Shown: positions 21,849-45,223 of the stretch, piece by piece
How the letters are laid out: every line of letters begins with the position of its first letter
Numbering within the stretch: the stretch's first letter is position 1
Origin: Escherichia phage HX01
Length of the DNA: 64,000 bases
Strand: one strand, 5' to 3'
Sequence record: NC_018855.1
The notes under the pieces: model-generated
Databases searched by the model: none
Seen by the model: only the letters and a program-made list of their open reading frames with translations
Told to the model about the DNA's origin: nothing
Made by a program: the position numbers and the translations under genes

Positions 21849-21877
21849 GTTTACTTCTCCGGTAGTTGTGTTATTAT
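21849..21877 (+). promoter_or_regulatory. early promoter
   Basis: GTTTAC, 17-nt spacer, TATTAT, followed by the recurring AGACCTATCAA motif. Confidence 0.5.
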
Positions 21878-21903
21878 AGACCTATCAACTACTGGAGAAC
21901 AAA

Positions 21904-34766: not shown

Positions 34767-34770
34767 AGTT

Positions 34771-34799
34771 GTTTACTTCTCCTCTGGTTTTGATATTAT
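34771..34799 (+). promoter_or_regulatory. early promoter
   Basis: GTTTAC, 17-nt spacer, TATTAT. Confidence 0.5.
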
Positions 34800-34825
34800 A
34801 GCCATATTAACCAGAGGAGAATAAT

Positions 34826-36702: not shown

Positions 36703-37386
36703 ATGAAATACATAACATACTTAACAATATACACAGGCGATAAGTTGCCACCGTTTTATATAGGGTCTACTTATCTTGATAAACATACAAACAATTACTA
36801 TCATGGTACGGTAAAGTCGAAAAAATATAAACAAATTTATGATAAAGAGATAAAAGATAATCCTCATTTATTTGATTCATGTATTATTGGCGAATTTGAT
36901 ACACGGGAAGAAGCGACGTTTTGTGAGTTGTATTACCAGAAATTGCATAATGTGGTTAAATCTGAAAAATTTTTCAACATGTCTTATGCCACAGTTGATG
37001 GGTGCTTTGGTATGGATGTTTCAAAAGAGTTAAATCCATTTTATGGACATAATCACTCTGAAGAAACTATTGAACTACAATCCGTTATCAAGAAAGGCGA
37101 TCTTAATCCGATGTATGGAATTAAGCGCCCGGAACATTCTAAAGCAATGAGTGGCAAAAACAATCCATTTTATAATAAGAAACATACAAAGGAAGCGCTT
37201 ATAAAGTGTGGGCTTAAAAATCGTAAAAGTCCTGTATGGGAATATGAATCTGCTTTATATAAATTATGGTTAGAATTGGATAAACCAAAGGTTGGGAAAT
37301 TTGCTAAAGAAAGCATTAAACGTGGATTTCCGGAAGGTTCATACAAAAATATAGTCATGCAATTTGAGAGAAAATCTAATGATTGA
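36703..37386 (+). mobile_element. GIY-YIG homing endonuclease (Seg-like)
   Basis: 227 aa; N-terminal YITYLTIYTGDKLPPFYIGSTY (GIY-YIG motif) and C-terminal NPFYG / NPMYG / NNPFYNKKHT repeats (NUMOD3-like); stop overlaps the start of gene 39. Confidence 0.65.
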
Positions 37387-39199
37387 TAATAAAATTGAAA
37401 TGCTATCCGATAAAGAGCATTGTTTGAAGCGTCCTGGCATGTATATTGGAAGTGTTGCCAATGAAGAACAAGAACGTTTCCTATTCGGTGAATTTAAAAA
37501 GGTTAAATATGTTGCAGGTGTTCTCAAATTAATTGATGAAATTATTGACAACTCGGTAGACGAAGCTATTCGAACCAATTTCAAATACGCTAATAAAATT
37601 TCCGTTAGTATTGATTTAAATTCTAATAAAGTGACTGTTGAAGATAATGGTCGAGGTATTCCTCAAGAAACAGTTATTACTCCTGAAGGAGAAGAAATTC
37701 CAGGACCAGTTGCGGCGTGGACACGTACAAAAGCCGGTGGCAACTTTGGTGACGACAAAGAACGTGTTACGGGTGGACAAAACGGTGTCGGTTCTTCATT
37801 AACAAATATTTTTTCTGTCTCTTTTGTTGGCACTACTTCAGATTGTAAAAACGAATTGACAGTTAATTGTTCTAATAATGCTGATAATATTTCTTGGAAA
37901 TCTAAGCCGTCTAAAAACAACGGGACTAAGGTCGAGTTTATTCCTGATTTCTCTCATTTTGAAATGAATCAATTTGAAAAAATATACCAAGATATTACTA
38001 TAGACCGGCTCCAAACATTGGCAGTCGTTTATCCTGGCATTGAATTTAAATTTAATGGCAAAAAGATTCAAGGTAACTTTAAGAAGTTTGCTAAACAATT
38101 TGATGAAGAGGCCATCATTCAAGAACAAGACGGATGCTCTATTGCCATTGGTCGGTCACCAGATGGCTTCCGACATTTAACTTATGTTAATAACATCCAT
38201 ACCAAAAACGGCGGTCATCACATTGAATGTGTGATGGACGACATTTGCGAAGAATTAATTCCGGCTATTAAACGCAAATATAAAATCGACGTGACTAAAG
38301 CGCGCATCAAGGAATGTCTCACTCTCTTAATGTTCGTTCGTGGAATGAAGAACCTTCGTTTTGATTCCCAAACCAAAGAGCGTTTAACAAGTCCTTATGG
38401 CGAAATTCGGACGCATATTAAATTAGATACCAAAAAATTGGCAAAAAATATTTTGAATTCTGAAGCAGTTTTGATGCCTATAATTGAAGCAGCATTAGCT
38501 CGTAAATTGGCAGCAGAAAAGGCCGCAGAAACTAAAGCAGCTAAAAAGGCAACTAAAGCTAAGGTTCATAAGCATATTAAAGCTAACCAATGTGGTAAAG
38601 ATGCAGATACGACATTGTTTTTAACAGAAGGTGATTCGGCAATTGGTTATCTCATTGATGTTCGTGACCGTGAACTACACGGCGGATTCCCATTACGTGG
38701 TAAGGTGATGAATAGCTGGGGTATGTCATATGCTGATATGATGAAGAACAAAGAGCTCTTCGATATCTGTGCTATCACAGGTCTTATTCTTGGTGAAAAG
38801 GCAGAGAATACGAACTATCGTAATATTGCAATTATGACCGATGCCGATCATGATGGTCTTGGAAGTATTTATCCGGCTTTGCTTGCTTTCTTTAGTAATT
38901 GGCCTGAATTGTTTGAACAAGGACGTATTCGCTTTGTTAAAACGCCTGTAATTATTGCACAAATTGGCAAAACTCAAAAATGGTTTTATACTGTAGCTGA
39001 GTATGAAGAAGCTAAAGATACACTGCCTAAGCATAGTATTCGATACATCAAGGGATTGGGCTCCCTTGAAAAGTCAGAATATCGTGAAATGATTCAGAAC
39101 CCTGTGTACGACGTAGTTAAACTTCCTGAAAATTGGAAAGAACTCTTTGAAATGTTGTTGGGTGATGATTCAGAACTTCGTAAAGAATGGATGTCCTAA
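37379..39199 (+). CDS. 39: DNA topoisomerase II large subunit, fused gene 39 + gene 60 form (GyrB-like ATPase + TOPRIM)
   Basis: Track TTG start trimmed to ATG 37379, giving 606 aa. N-terminal ATPase region (LKRPGMYIGS, DNSVDEA, GGxNGVG) and C-terminal TOPRIM region in one continuous ORF. Confidence 0.85.
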   Translation: MIDNKIEMLSDKEHCLKRPGMYIGSVANEEQERFLFGEFKKVKYVAGVLKLIDEIIDNSVDEAIRTNFKYANKISVSIDLNSNKVTVEDNGRGIPQETVITPEGEEIPGPVAAWTRTKAGGNFGDDKERVTGGQNGVGSSLTNIFSVSFVGTTSDCKNELTVNCSNNADNISWKSKPSKNNGTKVEFIPDFSHFEMNQFEKIYQDITIDRLQTLAVVYPGIEFKFNGKKIQGNFKKFAKQFDEEAIIQEQDGCSIAIGRSPDGFRHLTYVNNIHTKNGGHHIECVMDDICEELIPAIKRKYKIDVTKARIKECLTLLMFVRGMKNLRFDSQTKERLTSPYGEIRTHIKLDTKKLAKNILNSEAVLMPIIEAALARKLAAEKAAETKAAKKATKAKVHKHIKANQCGKDADTTLFLTEGDSAIGYLIDVRDRELHGGFPLRGKVMNSWGMSYADMMKNKELFDICAITGLILGEKAENTNYRNIAIMTDADHDGLGSIYPALLAFFSNWPELFEQGRIRFVKTPVIIAQIGKTQKWFYTVAEYEEAKDTLPKHSIRYIKGLGSLEKSEYREMIQNPVYDVVKLPENWKELFEMLLGDDSELRKEWMS

Positions 39200-39226
39200 G
39201 CTCCTTCTGGAGCTTCATTTTAATTT
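39199..39226 (+). terminator. hairpin after gene 39 (weak terminator or attenuator)
   Basis: AGCTCC-ttct-GGAGCT hairpin followed by a T/A-rich tract. Confidence 0.35.
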
Positions 39227-39241
39227 TAATAAGGCTTAATT

Positions 39242-40342
39242 ATGAAAGTTATGTTTATCCCATCTCGTGCAGTCCCATTTAATCCTGACCGTGTACAAGG
39301 TGGTCTTGAAGCAGTACATTTAAATGTGTTGAAATATCTTGTGTCCATCGGTGCTGATATTGATTATATCGGCTTTGATAATGACACGTTTGGTGACTGG
39401 AAAGTTACACACCATCCTGTTGGTCATCTGACTAAATTTAGTCTAGGTATGAGTTATACTATGGCTCGTAAGATTGTTGAACTAGCCGGCATCCATGAAT
39501 ACGATTTTGTTGTTACTATGGAACCGACTAAACTAACCGTTCAGGCAATTAAAGACGCAGGTCTCTCTAAAGTTCATAAGAATTTTATGGCAACACCATT
39601 TGAACCGGTATCTCGTGGCATTGTTCAAATTTGGGACCAGACTATTCAAATTCATAAGAATGGTGGTAAGAGTTATGCTCCTACTAAAGCCTTCCGTGAA
39701 TTTGAACGCAAATATTGTTATATGACTTCAGGTCTGACTGACAAAATTGATTATGATTATTGGCGAGCAAATCCGTTGTTTGAAGCCGAAGATTATCCGG
39801 TTATTTGTTTGAATGAGAAACCTGAAGTTCTTCCGGCGACTGATCTGATTATTAGTGCACAACGTTATGACACTAAAATGCGTCGTACTGATGTTGCTCT
39901 TGAAGCGATTAAAGCACTAGGCGAAAATGGTGTAGGATACTGTCCAAGCAAATGGGCACCACCAGCTAAATATCCTGTTATTATTGATGCTCCACACAGT
40001 GAAATCATGGAACGTCTTAAAACAGCTAAAGCGCTTATTAATACGTGTCCTGACACAGGTACGGTAGAGAATAGTTCTATTGAAGCCATCTCTAAAGGTG
40101 TCCCTGTAATCCAGTTAGTTTTTAAGGATTATCCTCATGCGACATTCGAATACGACCCAGATACTGTGCGTGTAGAAATTGATTCCTCTACTCCTAAGAA
40201 AGAAGTAGTTGCGCTTTACACAAAAGCTGTATTAGAATTCACTGACACATACGAAGCTCGAGTTAAACGTGCTGAAGCAGTATGGAAGAAGTATAACCGA
40301 GATGCAGTTGTTGCGATGTGGGATAAAATCTTCACAGCGTAA
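39242..40342 (+). CDS. putative GT-B-fold glycosyltransferase, candidate DNA (hmC) glycosyltransferase
   Basis: 366 aa; C-terminal region GTVENSSIEAISKGVPVIQL resembles the E-x7-E donor-binding motif of GT4/GT-B enzymes. Inserted between gene 39 and rIIA.1/rIIA, where T4 has no glycosyltransferase. Confidence 0.5.
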   Translation: MKVMFIPSRAVPFNPDRVQGGLEAVHLNVLKYLVSIGADIDYIGFDNDTFGDWKVTHHPVGHLTKFSLGMSYTMARKIVELAGIHEYDFVVTMEPTKLTVQAIKDAGLSKVHKNFMATPFEPVSRGIVQIWDQTIQIHKNGGKSYAPTKAFREFERKYCYMTSGLTDKIDYDYWRANPLFEAEDYPVICLNEKPEVLPATDLIISAQRYDTKMRRTDVALEAIKALGENGVGYCPSKWAPPAKYPVIIDAPHSEIMERLKTAKALINTCPDTGTVENSSIEAISKGVPVIQLVFKDYPHATFEYDPDTVRVEIDSSTPKKEVVALYTKAVLEFTDTYEARVKRAEAVWKKYNRDAVVAMWDKIFTA

Positions 40343-40434
40343 ATCCTGAATCGCCTGAGGCACTATTACACATAAGATGATAAATTATATGGTCTTTAGT
40401 AATAGTGCCCTAGGAATCTACTGAAGAGAATATT

Positions 40435-40635
40435 ATGAGAACATATAACGTGGACTTGGAACTTTTTGATAAAGCAGTGCTCCGGGAATTCCGGCTTATC
40501 CAAAGATTTTTTGATATCGAATCAGCTGAAGCCTTTAAAGAACGCTTTAAGGAAATTCGATATAAAATACAAACCGATACAGCTACTAAAGAAGAACTTC
40601 TTGAAGTAGCAGAAATTTTTAAACGTAACTTGTGA
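40435..40635 (+). CDS. hypothetical protein (66 aa), rIIA.1-like by position
   Basis: ATG ORF immediately upstream of rIIA. Confidence 0.45.
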   Translation: MRTYNVDLELFDKAVLREFRLIQRFFDIESAEAFKERFKEIRYKIQTDTATKEELLEVAEIFKRNL

Positions 40636-40647
40636 TGAGAGAAAAAT

Positions 40648-42861
40648 ATGATTATTGAAACGGCTAAAGAAACGATTATTGGTTCAGGCGGTAAGAGCAC
40701 AGCATTTACTATTCAAGGCAATAGCAAAGTTTATAAGATTTTGTCTAATGACCTTTATACAAACAAAGAATTGGCTTGTGTACGTGAATTAATCACAAAC
40801 TGTATTGATGGGCAAATTCTTAATGGTTGCACTGATAAGTTTATTGTTCAGGCTCCAGGTCGTTTAGACCCACGTTTTGTAGTTCGTGATTTTGGACCTG
40901 GTATGAGTGATTTCACTATTCGTGGTAATGACGAAGAGCCAGGAATTTATAACTCATATTTTGCTTCAACTAAAACATCGAGTAACGATTTCATTGGTGG
41001 ATTCGGACTCGGCTCTAAAGCTCCATTAGCATATACTGATACGTTTAACCTTACGTCTTATCATAATGGTGAAGTTCGTGGTTACGTAATCTACCAAGAT
41101 GACACAGGTCCACAGATTAAGCCGACCTTTGTAGATAAGATGGGTCCTGATGACCGTACGGGTGTAGAAGTAGTTGTACCGGTTAACCCGGAAGATTTTG
41201 AAAAGTTTGCATCCGAAATTGCATATGTTATGCGTCCTCTAGGTGATATTGCAGAAGTTCGTGGTGTTAAAGATATTAAATACTTCCCAGAATTTGATGA
41301 TGTATATTTGGCCAAGGAAGCTCCATGGGGTGAACGTGGTAATATCATGGCTGTTTATGGCGGTATTGTATATCCAATCGGAAGTGTTATTAAAGAACAA
41401 ACATGGATGATGACACGATGCACTACAGCTTATATTAAATTCCCAATGGGTGAACTAGATGTTGCTCCGTCTCGCGAAGCATTGTCATTTGATAAACGTA
41501 CAGTAGCAAATATCCATAAACGCGTTGCAGAAATCGATGCTAAATTGTTCGCTGAAGATTCTAAGAAATGGATTGATTGTAAATACCCACGACATGTGTT
41601 CCGCGAAATTGATTCTCTTGGCTATACCGCTCGTAAATACATGGAAAAGGCCGGGTCTAATATTGAATCACTGAAATACTCTAAAGAACAACTAACTTAT
41701 TCTGAGTTGTACAAACGTTTTAAAATGGGACCTGAGTGGTGTAATCTTGGTGTCGTATACGATATCGTTGAATCCCCTCGTCTTCGTCGTATTCGTGAAA
41801 GTGGTAGCTCATCATCAACCATTTCAATTAACAGCCTGATTGGCATTAACATTAAAAACGTTGAAATTGTTATTGACGATGTTAAGGGACGCGTTCCATT
41901 AATGCGAGCTCTTAATTCAATTGAAATGTCTAAAGACGAGGTTAAATTATCCGGTAAAGTTCCACGCGGTTTTGGTAAAAGCGTACTATTCGTTGACCCT
42001 ACAGACGAAGATGCAATGAAACTTCTGGAACGCCTTAAAGTTATCTTTGATGGCGATAGCATTAACATGTACAAGACTTCAGAGCTTTTACAAATCGTTA
42101 AGCCATGGATTGAAGTCAGGAAACGGACTAATGAGCCTCGTCCTAAATCCCCAAGTGCTCATCGGTTCTTTAAGAATGAAAAGGATGTTTGGGTATCAGA
42201 AGATCTCTTTATTCCAGCGAGTGAAGCTGATGAAATCCAAGGTTATGCTATAGTTCGTAATCGTTCTAATGCTGAATGTCTTGACGCAGATAAAGGTTGG
42301 TTAAACTATGACTCTAATTTCTTGACTCGTATTGCTGATTTGTCAGGTATTAAAGAGTTCACTGTAGTTCGCCCACAGATTGCTAAGAAAGTTCGTAAAC
42401 TTGGTGAAGTAGAATGCTTGTTCGAAAAATCAATTAATGACTATATTACGCTAATTGATAAAGTGGATTATGATGAGTATGTGTCACCAAGTCGTAGAGC
42501 ACAGCCTTATTTGAATCATATTACTCGTAATGAAGAGCTTAACTTCCTTAGTAAGTATTTTAGCTCTAAGAACAAAGAAATCAGTAAAGACTTTGCAAAA
42601 CTCTCAACAGTAAATAATCGTTGGGGATGGAATCGATTCGCAGGTGCTACTAATACAGACCTGAATAAGAAGTTAGAATTGTGTGCTAAAATTTTCGATA
42701 AGCTTAAAGATAATGCTTACGATAATGATGATAAAATGGTTATTGAATTCGAAACCAATTATCATATTGTGTCAGAATACATGGGACGACGTGGTACTCT
42801 TTCCAAAGAACAGGTCGCTCAAATCGTTAAATTCATGAAGGCCGTGGAAGCGGCCAAATAA
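40648..42861 (+). CDS. rIIA: RIIA protein (rapid-lysis / lysis inhibition; GHKL-type ATPase-like N-terminal domain)
   Basis: 737 aa; MIIETAKETIIGSGGKSTAFT...YKILSNDLYTNKELACVRELITNCID matches the T4 RIIA N-terminus; size close to T4's 725 aa. Confidence 0.9.
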   Translation: MIIETAKETIIGSGGKSTAFTIQGNSKVYKILSNDLYTNKELACVRELITNCIDGQILNGCTDKFIVQAPGRLDPRFVVRDFGPGMSDFTIRGNDEEPGIYNSYFASTKTSSNDFIGGFGLGSKAPLAYTDTFNLTSYHNGEVRGYVIYQDDTGPQIKPTFVDKMGPDDRTGVEVVVPVNPEDFEKFASEIAYVMRPLGDIAEVRGVKDIKYFPEFDDVYLAKEAPWGERGNIMAVYGGIVYPIGSVIKEQTWMMTRCTTAYIKFPMGELDVAPSREALSFDKRTVANIHKRVAEIDAKLFAEDSKKWIDCKYPRHVFREIDSLGYTARKYMEKAGSNIESLKYSKEQLTYSELYKRFKMGPEWCNLGVVYDIVESPRLRRIRESGSSSSTISINSLIGINIKNVEIVIDDVKGRVPLMRALNSIEMSKDEVKLSGKVPRGFGKSVLFVDPTDEDAMKLLERLKVIFDGDSINMYKTSELLQIVKPWIEVRKRTNEPRPKSPSAHRFFKNEKDVWVSEDLFIPASEADEIQGYAIVRNRSNAECLDADKGWLNYDSNFLTRIADLSGIKEFTVVRPQIAKKVRKLGEVECLFEKSINDYITLIDKVDYDEYVSPSRRAQPYLNHITRNEELNFLSKYFSSKNKEISKDFAKLSTVNNRWGWNRFAGATNTDLNKKLELCAKIFDKLKDNAYDNDDKMVIEFETNYHIVSEYMGRRGTLSKEQVAQIVKFMKAVEAAK

Positions 42862-44973: not shown

Positions 44974-45165
44974 GCTCTAAAATGTGGATAGGAATATGGT
45001 TGCTTAGTATCCCTATGATTTGTATAGTATTTTCAATTGTATTGAGGTACTTATGAAAAATGCACTTATTATTGTACTAAGAACAATTTGTGATACGGGT
45101 TTTTACATCGCATGTTCGTTCACTGGAACATGGTTGGCTTTAACATATTTTAATGTAATTTAATT

Positions 45166-45195
45166 GTTTACAACAAGGTAGGATTATGGTATAGT
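45166..45195 (+). promoter_or_regulatory. early promoter
   Basis: GTTTAC, 17-nt spacer, TATAGT. Confidence 0.5.
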
Positions 45196-45223
45196 AGTCC
45201 TACTGAAACATGAGGAACACAAA

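Follow-up and report, generated by a model that had tools for sequence, protein, structure and literature searches.

What is the role of the long inverted repeat in the spacer between the gene for a 366-aa protein and rIIA.1 in Escherichia phage HX01, and does it act as RNA or as DNA? The original prediction, which was made for the 64,000-nucleotide stretch of NC_018855.1 that we analysed (the window), described two arms and an A/T-rich, TATAT-type sequence between them, and all of these details were confirmed by direct reading and by repeat search. The arms, CCTGAGGCACTATTAC (40354-40369) and GTAATAGTGCCCTAGG (40399-40414), are complementary at 14 of 16 positions (88%), including a perfect 11-bp core (40359-69 with 40399-409), and the 29 nt that separate them are A/T-rich and contain TTATAT. 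As RNA, the repeat was expected to form a stable hairpin just past the stop codon of the 366-aa gene and upstream of the next ribosome-binding site. Indeed, RNA folding yields such a hairpin at -26.3 kcal/mol for the + strand, but it also yields pairing that the original prediction had missed, in that the inter-arm ‘loop’ is itself self-complementary (AAGAU pairs with GUCUU and AUA with UAU). The entire segment from 40354 to 40414 on the + strand thus folds as a single extended imperfect hairpin of 61 nt with 23 pairs, and the centroid structure of the 271-nt context retains it. The lower stem has 15 bp with one A.C mismatch (in the order 4 bp, A.C, 11 bp), and is separated by a 4x2 internal loop from an A/U-rich upper stem of 8 bp (40374-40396) with one G.G mismatch, so that there are two 1x1 mismatches in the whole hairpin; the 5-nt apical loop (40383-40387) is AAUUA here and AGAUU in most relatives. 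The hairpin begins 12 nt after the stop codon of the 366-aa ORF (40340-42) and ends 20 nt before the ATG of rIIA.1 (40435).

By its sequence the window is that of a Mosigvirus, an RB69-like T4-type coliphage, and the locus is matched by 153 phage records with 95-100% identity. The + strand carries 80 of the ~90 genes in the window, including all of the neighbours of the hairpin, and the gene order on this strand is the topoisomerase II large subunit (‘60plus39’), a terminator-like hairpin (39198-39215), RB69ORF003c, the 92-nt spacer with the hairpin, rIIA.1, rIIA and rIIB. The 366-aa ORF (39242-40342, + strand) corresponds by similarity to RB69ORF003c, or RB69 gp3, a putative DNA arabinosyltransferase (PMC6024577, PMC13326640). 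ORF003c was proposed as the RB69 arabinosyltransferase (PMC6024577); RB69 DNA contains arabinosylated 5-hydroxycytosine, and a 2026 study lists ORF003c as putative ‘beta-arabinosyltransferase 2’ (PMC13326640). The downstream gene, rIIA.1 (40435-40635, + strand), encodes 66 aa and has a profile match to Pfam T4_RIIA1. At 13 rIIA.1 loci in other T4-like genera, the topoisomerase gene adjoins rIIA.1, with neither ORF003c nor the spacer. Thus, the + strand segment 39200-40434, which comprises a spacer, ORF003c and the spacer with the hairpin and is missing from other T4-like genera, is a lineage-specific, Mosigvirus-specific insertion, and the hairpin is placed at the 3' junction of this insertion as judged from these gene orders.

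The other ORF003c homologues, which are ~42% identical, occur only in Acinetobacter T4-like phages and at a different locus (the record ‘Tegunavirus sp. BRC001’ clusters with the Acinetobacter phages in this comparison). The homologue in Acinetobacter phage AbTZA1 is followed, ~10 nt past its stop codon, by a stable hairpin without a T-tract, GGAGCC-UUCG-GGCUCC. We rejected the idea that the hairpin at 40354-40414 was inherited together with ORF003c, since this Acinetobacter hairpin is unrelated to it.

Several additional features were noted at or near this insertion. At its 5' junction, the terminator-like hairpin called by the terminator scan at 39198-39215 on the + strand (AAGCUCC-UUCU-GGAGCUU, in DNA AAGCTCC-TTCT-GGAGCTT) is followed by a T-rich tail, CATTTTAATT. 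This hairpin overlaps with the stop codon of the topoisomerase gene and leaves only 26 nt to the ATG of ORF003c, which would thus seem to rely either on read-through or on a promoter located within the topoisomerase gene. Phage AV114 (OR352944.1) has a ‘homing endonuclease’ CDS directly 5' of ORF003c, at the position of the end of the topoisomerase gene in the window, and the junction 5' of ORF003c appears to be a mobile-gene hot spot. A 227-aa homing-endonuclease-like ORF (36703-37386; NUMOD3 motif; PHROG homing/HNH endonuclease families) is also found in the window, and at its end it overlaps with the topoisomerase gene, for which the listed start is 37364. In Shigella phage JK45 (MK962757.1:1900-4700), the equivalent of positions 39950-40450 of the window is tandemly duplicated, with a duplicated unit that runs from the last ~390 nt of ORF003c through the entire hairpin-bearing spacer to the 16th nt of rIIA.1; this duplication could be real or an assembly artefact. 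Dyad-mediated recombination as its source found no support, as the junction lies away from the dyad.

The repeat and the structure that it forms differ in how they compare with chance. Inverted repeats with a perfect match of 11 bp or more and a loop no longer than 40 nt were seen twice in the 64 kb, compared to 0.84 +/- 0.83 in dinucleotide shuffles, and a bare perfect repeat of this length is no excess over chance. The whole 61-nt structure does exceed chance, with a folding energy of -26.3 kcal/mol compared to -9.7 +/- 2.6 for its own shuffles (z = -6.4, 0/200). This hairpin ranks ~7th among all 80-nt windows on both strands and is the most stable single hairpin among the ~46 non-coding spacers of the window. 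These observations bear on the explanation that the hairpin is a functionless relic, a by-product of the ORF003c insertion or of a template-switch mutation, which persists only by virtue of the low divergence of Mosigvirus. We consider this explanation rather unlikely. The near-chance rate of perfect 11-bp inverted repeats and the occurrence of the element only where the ORF003c insertion exists are consistent with it, while the standing of the hairpin as the most stable single intergenic one and the location of both long perfect repeats in the non-coding ~8% of the window argue against it; the variation among relatives, to which we return below, provides points on both sides.

The energetics of the structure differ between the strands and between RNA and DNA. 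The - strand RNA folds with -23.0 kcal/mol, and the + strand fold is better because it has two G-U pairs that become A.C mismatches on the - strand; similarly, phage ESCO47 has a third G-U pair (C40408U) that only + strand RNA can accommodate. For single-stranded DNA, the value of the stem is only -11 kcal/mol. The evidence of the G-U pairs, the + strand folding energy and the strand of the neighbouring genes favours a + strand RNA element.

The proposal in the original prediction that the repeat, as DNA, might be an operator flanking a promoter did not hold up, since no promoter was found, the half-sites lie 45 bp apart from centre to centre, unlike those of a dimeric operator, and the A/T-rich ‘loop’ of the dyad is mostly the upper stem of the hairpin, which counts against an operator or promoter. 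More generally, a DNA operator or other DNA site at which a dimeric protein contacts both arms is highly improbable. There are two inverted 16-bp half-sites and the left arm is invariant, as such a site would have it, but the right arm is variable at 5 of 16 positions and the left arm at none, which is not a symmetric constraint, and there is no promoter to control. In addition, the G-U pairs and the paired ‘spacer’ indicate RNA, the DNA of this phage is cytosine-hypermodified (PMC13326640), and the element is single-copy.

A consensus scan of both strands of the spacer (40343-40434) gave no promoter, and we found no early, middle or late T4-type match in the spacer with patterns (early, TTTACW-N16-18-TAYWAT; middle, MotA box TGCTTyA-N11-13-TAnnnT; late, TATAAATA) that, in other parts of the window, identify 8 early, 14 middle and 5 late candidates. 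A late promoter in the loop was ruled out, since the loop sequence ATAAATTA is ATAGATTA in most relatives, and a TATAAT on the - strand was rejected as a promoter, having no -35 hexamer and no gene to serve. The best partial match, ATTACA(40365-70)-N17-TATGGT(40388-93), agrees with 8 of 12 positions of the sigma-70 consensus and 9 of 12 positions of the T4 early consensus, and the region upstream of ATTACA is G+C-rich, with no UP element.

If this partial match were a weak promoter nested in the hairpin, with a start at ~40398-40401, the promoter-proximal rIIA.1 mRNA would lack the 5' arm and read-through RNA would carry the hairpin, which amounts to a T4-style form of the idea in the original prediction. 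The 17-nt spacing is right, nine of the 12 positions fit the T4 early consensus TTTACW/TAYWAT (PMC4122927), and positions T1, A2 and T6 of the -10 hexamer are invariant; the variants TACAGT, TACGGT and TATAGT alter positions 3-4 only, and two of them approach the consensus. The left arm with its -35-like hexamer is likewise invariant, and the same phage uses cassettes with a promoter inside a dyad elsewhere. Nevertheless, we think that a nested promoter is quite unlikely. The match falls below the threshold of the sigma-70 scan, was not picked up by the T4-type pattern, with which 8 good early promoters were found in the window, and has neither an A-rich UP element nor a TGn motif; moreover, a 9/12 match is unremarkable in a 92-nt A/T-rich spacer, occurring ~1 per 600 nt of strand in shuffles. 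Finally, the Shine-Dalgarno sequence and the AUG lie outside the 3' arm, such that nothing would be regulated, whereas the true cassettes pair an anti-Shine-Dalgarno sequence with a Shine-Dalgarno sequence.

Those cassettes, at 34767-34825 (dyad 34772-34821, 13/13 bp) and 21849-21903 (dyad 21850-21900, 13/14 bp), each have a consensus T4-type early promoter, TTTACT-N16-TATTAT, inside the long dyad. The spacer of the promoter holds the 5' arm, which includes the anti-Shine-Dalgarno sequence TTCTCC (UUCUCC), and the 3' arm includes the Shine-Dalgarno sequence GGAGAA of the next ORF; with this layout, the ribosome-binding site would be hidden in read-through RNA but not in promoter-proximal RNA. 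The two copies differ in their inner arm sequences and yet keep complementarity, and blastn places this arrangement at 2-3 sites per Mosigvirus genome, making it a repeated cassette. The hairpin at 40354-40414 shares no feature of the cassettes with dyads at 34772-34821 and 21850-21900, which are of greater interest than this hairpin.

T4 genes e, soc, 49 and I-TevI have hairpins in which a ribosome-binding site is sequestered and a promoter is enclosed, and the two cassettes are clear examples of such hairpins in the window. Like these, the hairpin at 40354-40414 has arms ~30 nt apart and is upstream of a start codon; unlike these, it sequesters nothing, and has no consensus promoter in its loop. 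The 3' arm ends at 40414, 8 nt before the weak Shine-Dalgarno-like GAAGAG for rIIA.1 (40423-40428, + strand), which is outside the hairpin and invariant in the compared sequences. Thus, the hairpin does not hide a ribosome-binding site and probably carries no promoter.

Other dyads and promoter-like sequences were noted in the window. Within rIIA.1, a 13-nt dyad at 40510-40568 (TTTGATATCGAAT/ATTCGATATAAAA, 92% complementary, 32 nt apart) overlaps a MotA-box-like CGCTTTA-N13-TAAAAT (40543-40568), a possible middle promoter for rIIA. A second MotA-box-like CGCTTTA, with TAGAAT 14 nt further, lies in the 3' part of ORF003c (40212-40238), and the two changes in ESCO47 (G40211A, C40212T) make this box a perfect TTATGCTTTA; activity of the box at 40212-40238 would mean that a middle-mode transcript begins ~100 nt 5' of the hairpin. 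The spacers at 804-875 and 45160-45220 also have dyads that bracket a promoter-like -10 sequence, for example ATAGGTCT...GATATAAT...AGACCTAT, and the motif TAGACCTATC is repeated just 3' of several early-promoter -10 boxes (21850, 47735, 48057).

We also compared the hairpin with terminators and with known families of RNA elements. The original prediction that this is not a classic terminator stands, because there is no U-tract 3' of the stem: the sequence after 40414 is AATCTACTGAAGAG, with no T run, and none follows on the other strand. Like an intrinsic (Rho-independent) terminator, the hairpin is stable and stands right after a gene, but in place of a compact G+C-rich stem with a loop of 3-8 nt it has a long, interrupted stem with 23 pairs, a 4x2 loop and two 1x1 mismatches. 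Within 39000-41000, the terminator scan called only 39198-39215 and not the hairpin at 40354-40414. Searches of Rfam yielded no family, the best overlap being a generic hairpin match to mir-361 on the - strand (16.6 bits compared to a threshold of 70, E = 5). A repeat family or mobile element was ruled out, since the arm motif is unique within the 64-kb window and blastn finds the single-copy hairpin at one place per Mosigvirus genome, with the exception of the tandem duplication in JK45. The PeSL (promoter-early stem-loop) of T4-like phages is a stem-loop just upstream of a sigma-70-like early promoter, present in many similar copies that are concentrated in hyperplastic regions (PMC4122927). 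Like PeSLs (Arbiol 2010, PMC2839356; Comeau 2014, PMC4122927), the hairpin is an intergenic stem-loop at the boundary of a lineage-specific insertion, followed by a Shine-Dalgarno sequence and an ATG; unlike PeSLs, it has no downstream early promoter, with only 20 nt from stem to ATG, and one copy per genome. In the literature on rIIA.1, ORF003c and RB69 transcript maps, we found no description of this hairpin.

Conservation of the dyad in related phages was a test named in the original prediction, and the hairpin is present in 153 of 153 Mosigvirus records that hold the locus; this conservation is confined to Mosigvirus because the entire spacer exists only there. We compared 22 sequences (the window, 15 GenBank phages that are mainly the most divergent matches, 2 IMG/VR contigs and 4 metagenome contigs), and the hairpin was found in all 22; every sequence added by the metagenome scan has an identity of at least 98%. 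We set aside as a chance match a 31-nt similarity in Phapecoctavirus P3322 (E = 0.2), in which there is no dyad. Among the 22 sequences, 5 of 46 paired positions are variable (11%), compared to 6 of 15 unpaired positions within the hairpin (40%) and 68 of 196 third codon positions of the flanking genes (35%), while 16 of 392 first and second codon positions (4%) and 1 of 31 positions in the rest of the spacer (3%) are variable. The paired positions differ from the unpaired ones (Fisher p = 0.019) and from third codon positions (p = 0.001) in tests that ignore phylogeny and are based on small counts. The non-hairpin part of the spacer is even less variable, and thus low variation is not specific to pairing. 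The 5' arm of the lower stem (40354-40369, + strand) is invariant in all 22 sequences, and the 3' arm (40399-40414, + strand) holds all five variable columns of the stem arms (40406, 40408, 40410, 40411 and 40414).

The individual changes both strengthen and weaken the stem. In AV109, AV114 and AV116, CU->UC at 40410-11 closes the A.C mismatch and turns a G-U pair into G-C, such that the lower stem is perfect at 16/16. Independently of each other, A40398G in ESCO47 (to C-G) and C40371U in ST2 (to U-A) repair one C.A mismatch, that between 40371 and 40398, and ESCO47 C40408U leaves a G-U pair. On the other side, RB69 itself has U40406C, which introduces an A.C and a weaker stem; three phages have G40414C, which weakens the terminal pair, and two have U40390C, which weakens the already weak upper stem. 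The six variants that we folded, which include all of the observed changes that affect the stem other than G40391A by itself (phage F27, at a 1x1 mismatch position), all retain the same fold at -23 to -34 kcal/mol. The pair-improving changes are all transitions, the type favoured by mutation alone, and template switching can also homogenise palindromes. No two-sided compensatory changes were found among the 22 Mosigvirus sequences, and the covariation score equals that of the shuffled control because the compared sequences are ~98% identical. Taken as a comparison of closely related sequences, these data indicate constraint on the stem, with the structure not proven by covariation.

The variation among relatives provides the remaining evidence on a functionless relic. 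Sequences that are 95-100% identical with no covariation, a stem mismatch in the type strain RB69 and a flanking spacer that is equally conserved all fit a relic; in opposition, the paired positions are ~3-fold less variable than third codon positions and unpaired hairpin positions of the same genomes, and the stem has been strengthened in three lineages.

Two other observations came from the comparison of relatives. The CT->TC change that perfects the hairpin in AV109, AV116 and AV114 also destroys an in-frame TAG at 40411-13; as a result, annotators placed the start of rIIA.1 10 codons further upstream, at a GTG within the 3' arm, and this 10-codon extension in AV109, AV114 and AV116 is probably an annotation artefact. 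Pairing between the loop (40385-95) and rIIA.1 codons 2-5 (40438-48) was rejected, since the changes on one side and those on the other are found in separate genomes and do not compensate for each other.

Further comparisons are with hairpins that act on mRNA. T4-type C(UUCG)G intergenic hairpins and E. coli REP-type 3' barriers are intercistronic stabilisers of mRNA. Like them, the hairpin at 40354-40414 is a stable stem-loop just past a stop codon inside a polycistronic unit, with no U-tract, and the role expected of such hairpins is as a block to 3' exonucleases or a mark for processing; the AbTZA1 homologue of the upstream gene has a UUCG hairpin of exactly this kind. Unlike the compact G+C-rich hairpins elsewhere in the window, this hairpin has 23 bp, an A/U-rich upper half, internal loops and no tetraloop, and is single-copy.

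The irregular form of the hairpin raises the alternative of an RNase III-type processing site. T7 R1.1-type RNase III substrates share this general shape, an irregular intercistronic hairpin of ~60 nt with a lower stem, an internal loop and an upper stem, although they have no sequence relationship to the hairpin here. By analogy with these T7 early-mRNA signals, cleavage in or close to the internal loop would free the rII mRNA, with a hairpin remaining at the 3' end of the gp3 mRNA. The hairpin offers what such a site calls for, at least ~20 bp of quasi-continuous dsRNA, often with an internal loop: it has about two helical turns of dsRNA with an asymmetric internal loop (a 15-bp lower stem, the 4x2 loop and an 8-bp upper stem), and it is far longer than the usual tetraloop hairpins of this phage. 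Against it, RNase III goes unmentioned in a review of T4 post-transcriptional control, and the partial closure of the internal loop in ESCO47 and ST2 argues against a conserved cleavage loop. The known roles of RNase III in T4 are limited to the tRNA and stable-RNA region, and it is not an established processing enzyme of T-even mRNAs. We regard an RNase III-type site as very unlikely.

Beyond the observed structure, position, single copy, restriction to Mosigvirus and lower variation at paired positions, we tentatively favour the interpretation, which we hold to be a serious possibility though not quite a probability, that the hairpin is a transcribed intercistronic + strand RNA stem-loop that acts as a nuclease barrier or processing signal. 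It would be transcribed as part of read-through RNA, within a polycistronic topoisomerase - arabinosyltransferase (gp3/ORF003c) - rIIA.1 - rIIA - rIIB message of RB69-like phages, and would form as ribosomes terminate at the ORF003c stop codon 12 nt upstream. RNA polymerase would be at most paused or weakly attenuated by it, with no efficient termination. Its role would be post-transcriptional, as a block to 3'->5' exonucleases, an endonucleolytic processing signal, or both: a block would give the ORF003c segment of the mRNA a protected, stable 3' end, and a cut would give the rIIA.1-rIIA segment a structured 5' end. In either case, the stabilities of the acquired gene and of the old rII operon would be uncoupled.

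Several observations support a barrier or processing signal. This is the strongest spacer hairpin of the window (-26.3 kcal/mol, z = -6.4), with same-strand genes on both sides; the stop codon is 12 nt before it and the ATG 20 nt after it, with neither room nor signal for a promoter between; and its mismatches have been repaired in three lineages. By analogy, the post-stop hairpin of the AbTZA1 homologue may be counted in favour as well. Opposed to a barrier or processing signal are the changes that weaken pairs (U40406C in RB69, G40414C in three phages and U40390C in two) and the difference from the usual T4-type intercistronic hairpins, which are compact G+C-rich stems with tetraloops. As a much less likely and more ambitious interpretation, which we would call a long shot, the hairpin might be a dedicated regulatory RNA element (a specific processing site or one recognised by an RNA-binding protein of the phage or the host), or the shell of a weak internal promoter that produces hairpin-less rIIA.1 mRNA. 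If so, the expression of the second arabinosyltransferase would be set relative to that of the rII genes, by regulation that evolved upon the insertion of a DNA-modification gene into an old operon.

An intercistronic hairpin in a T4-like phage is an ordinary kind of feature, and the significance of this one is modest; it brings no new mechanism and has no bearing on a long-standing question. In Mosigvirus annotations, it merits a line as a regulatory feature. The 3' junction of the insertion to which RB69-like phages owe one of their DNA arabinosyltransferases is marked by this hairpin, which may illustrate RNA-level insulation of a newly acquired gene from its host operon.
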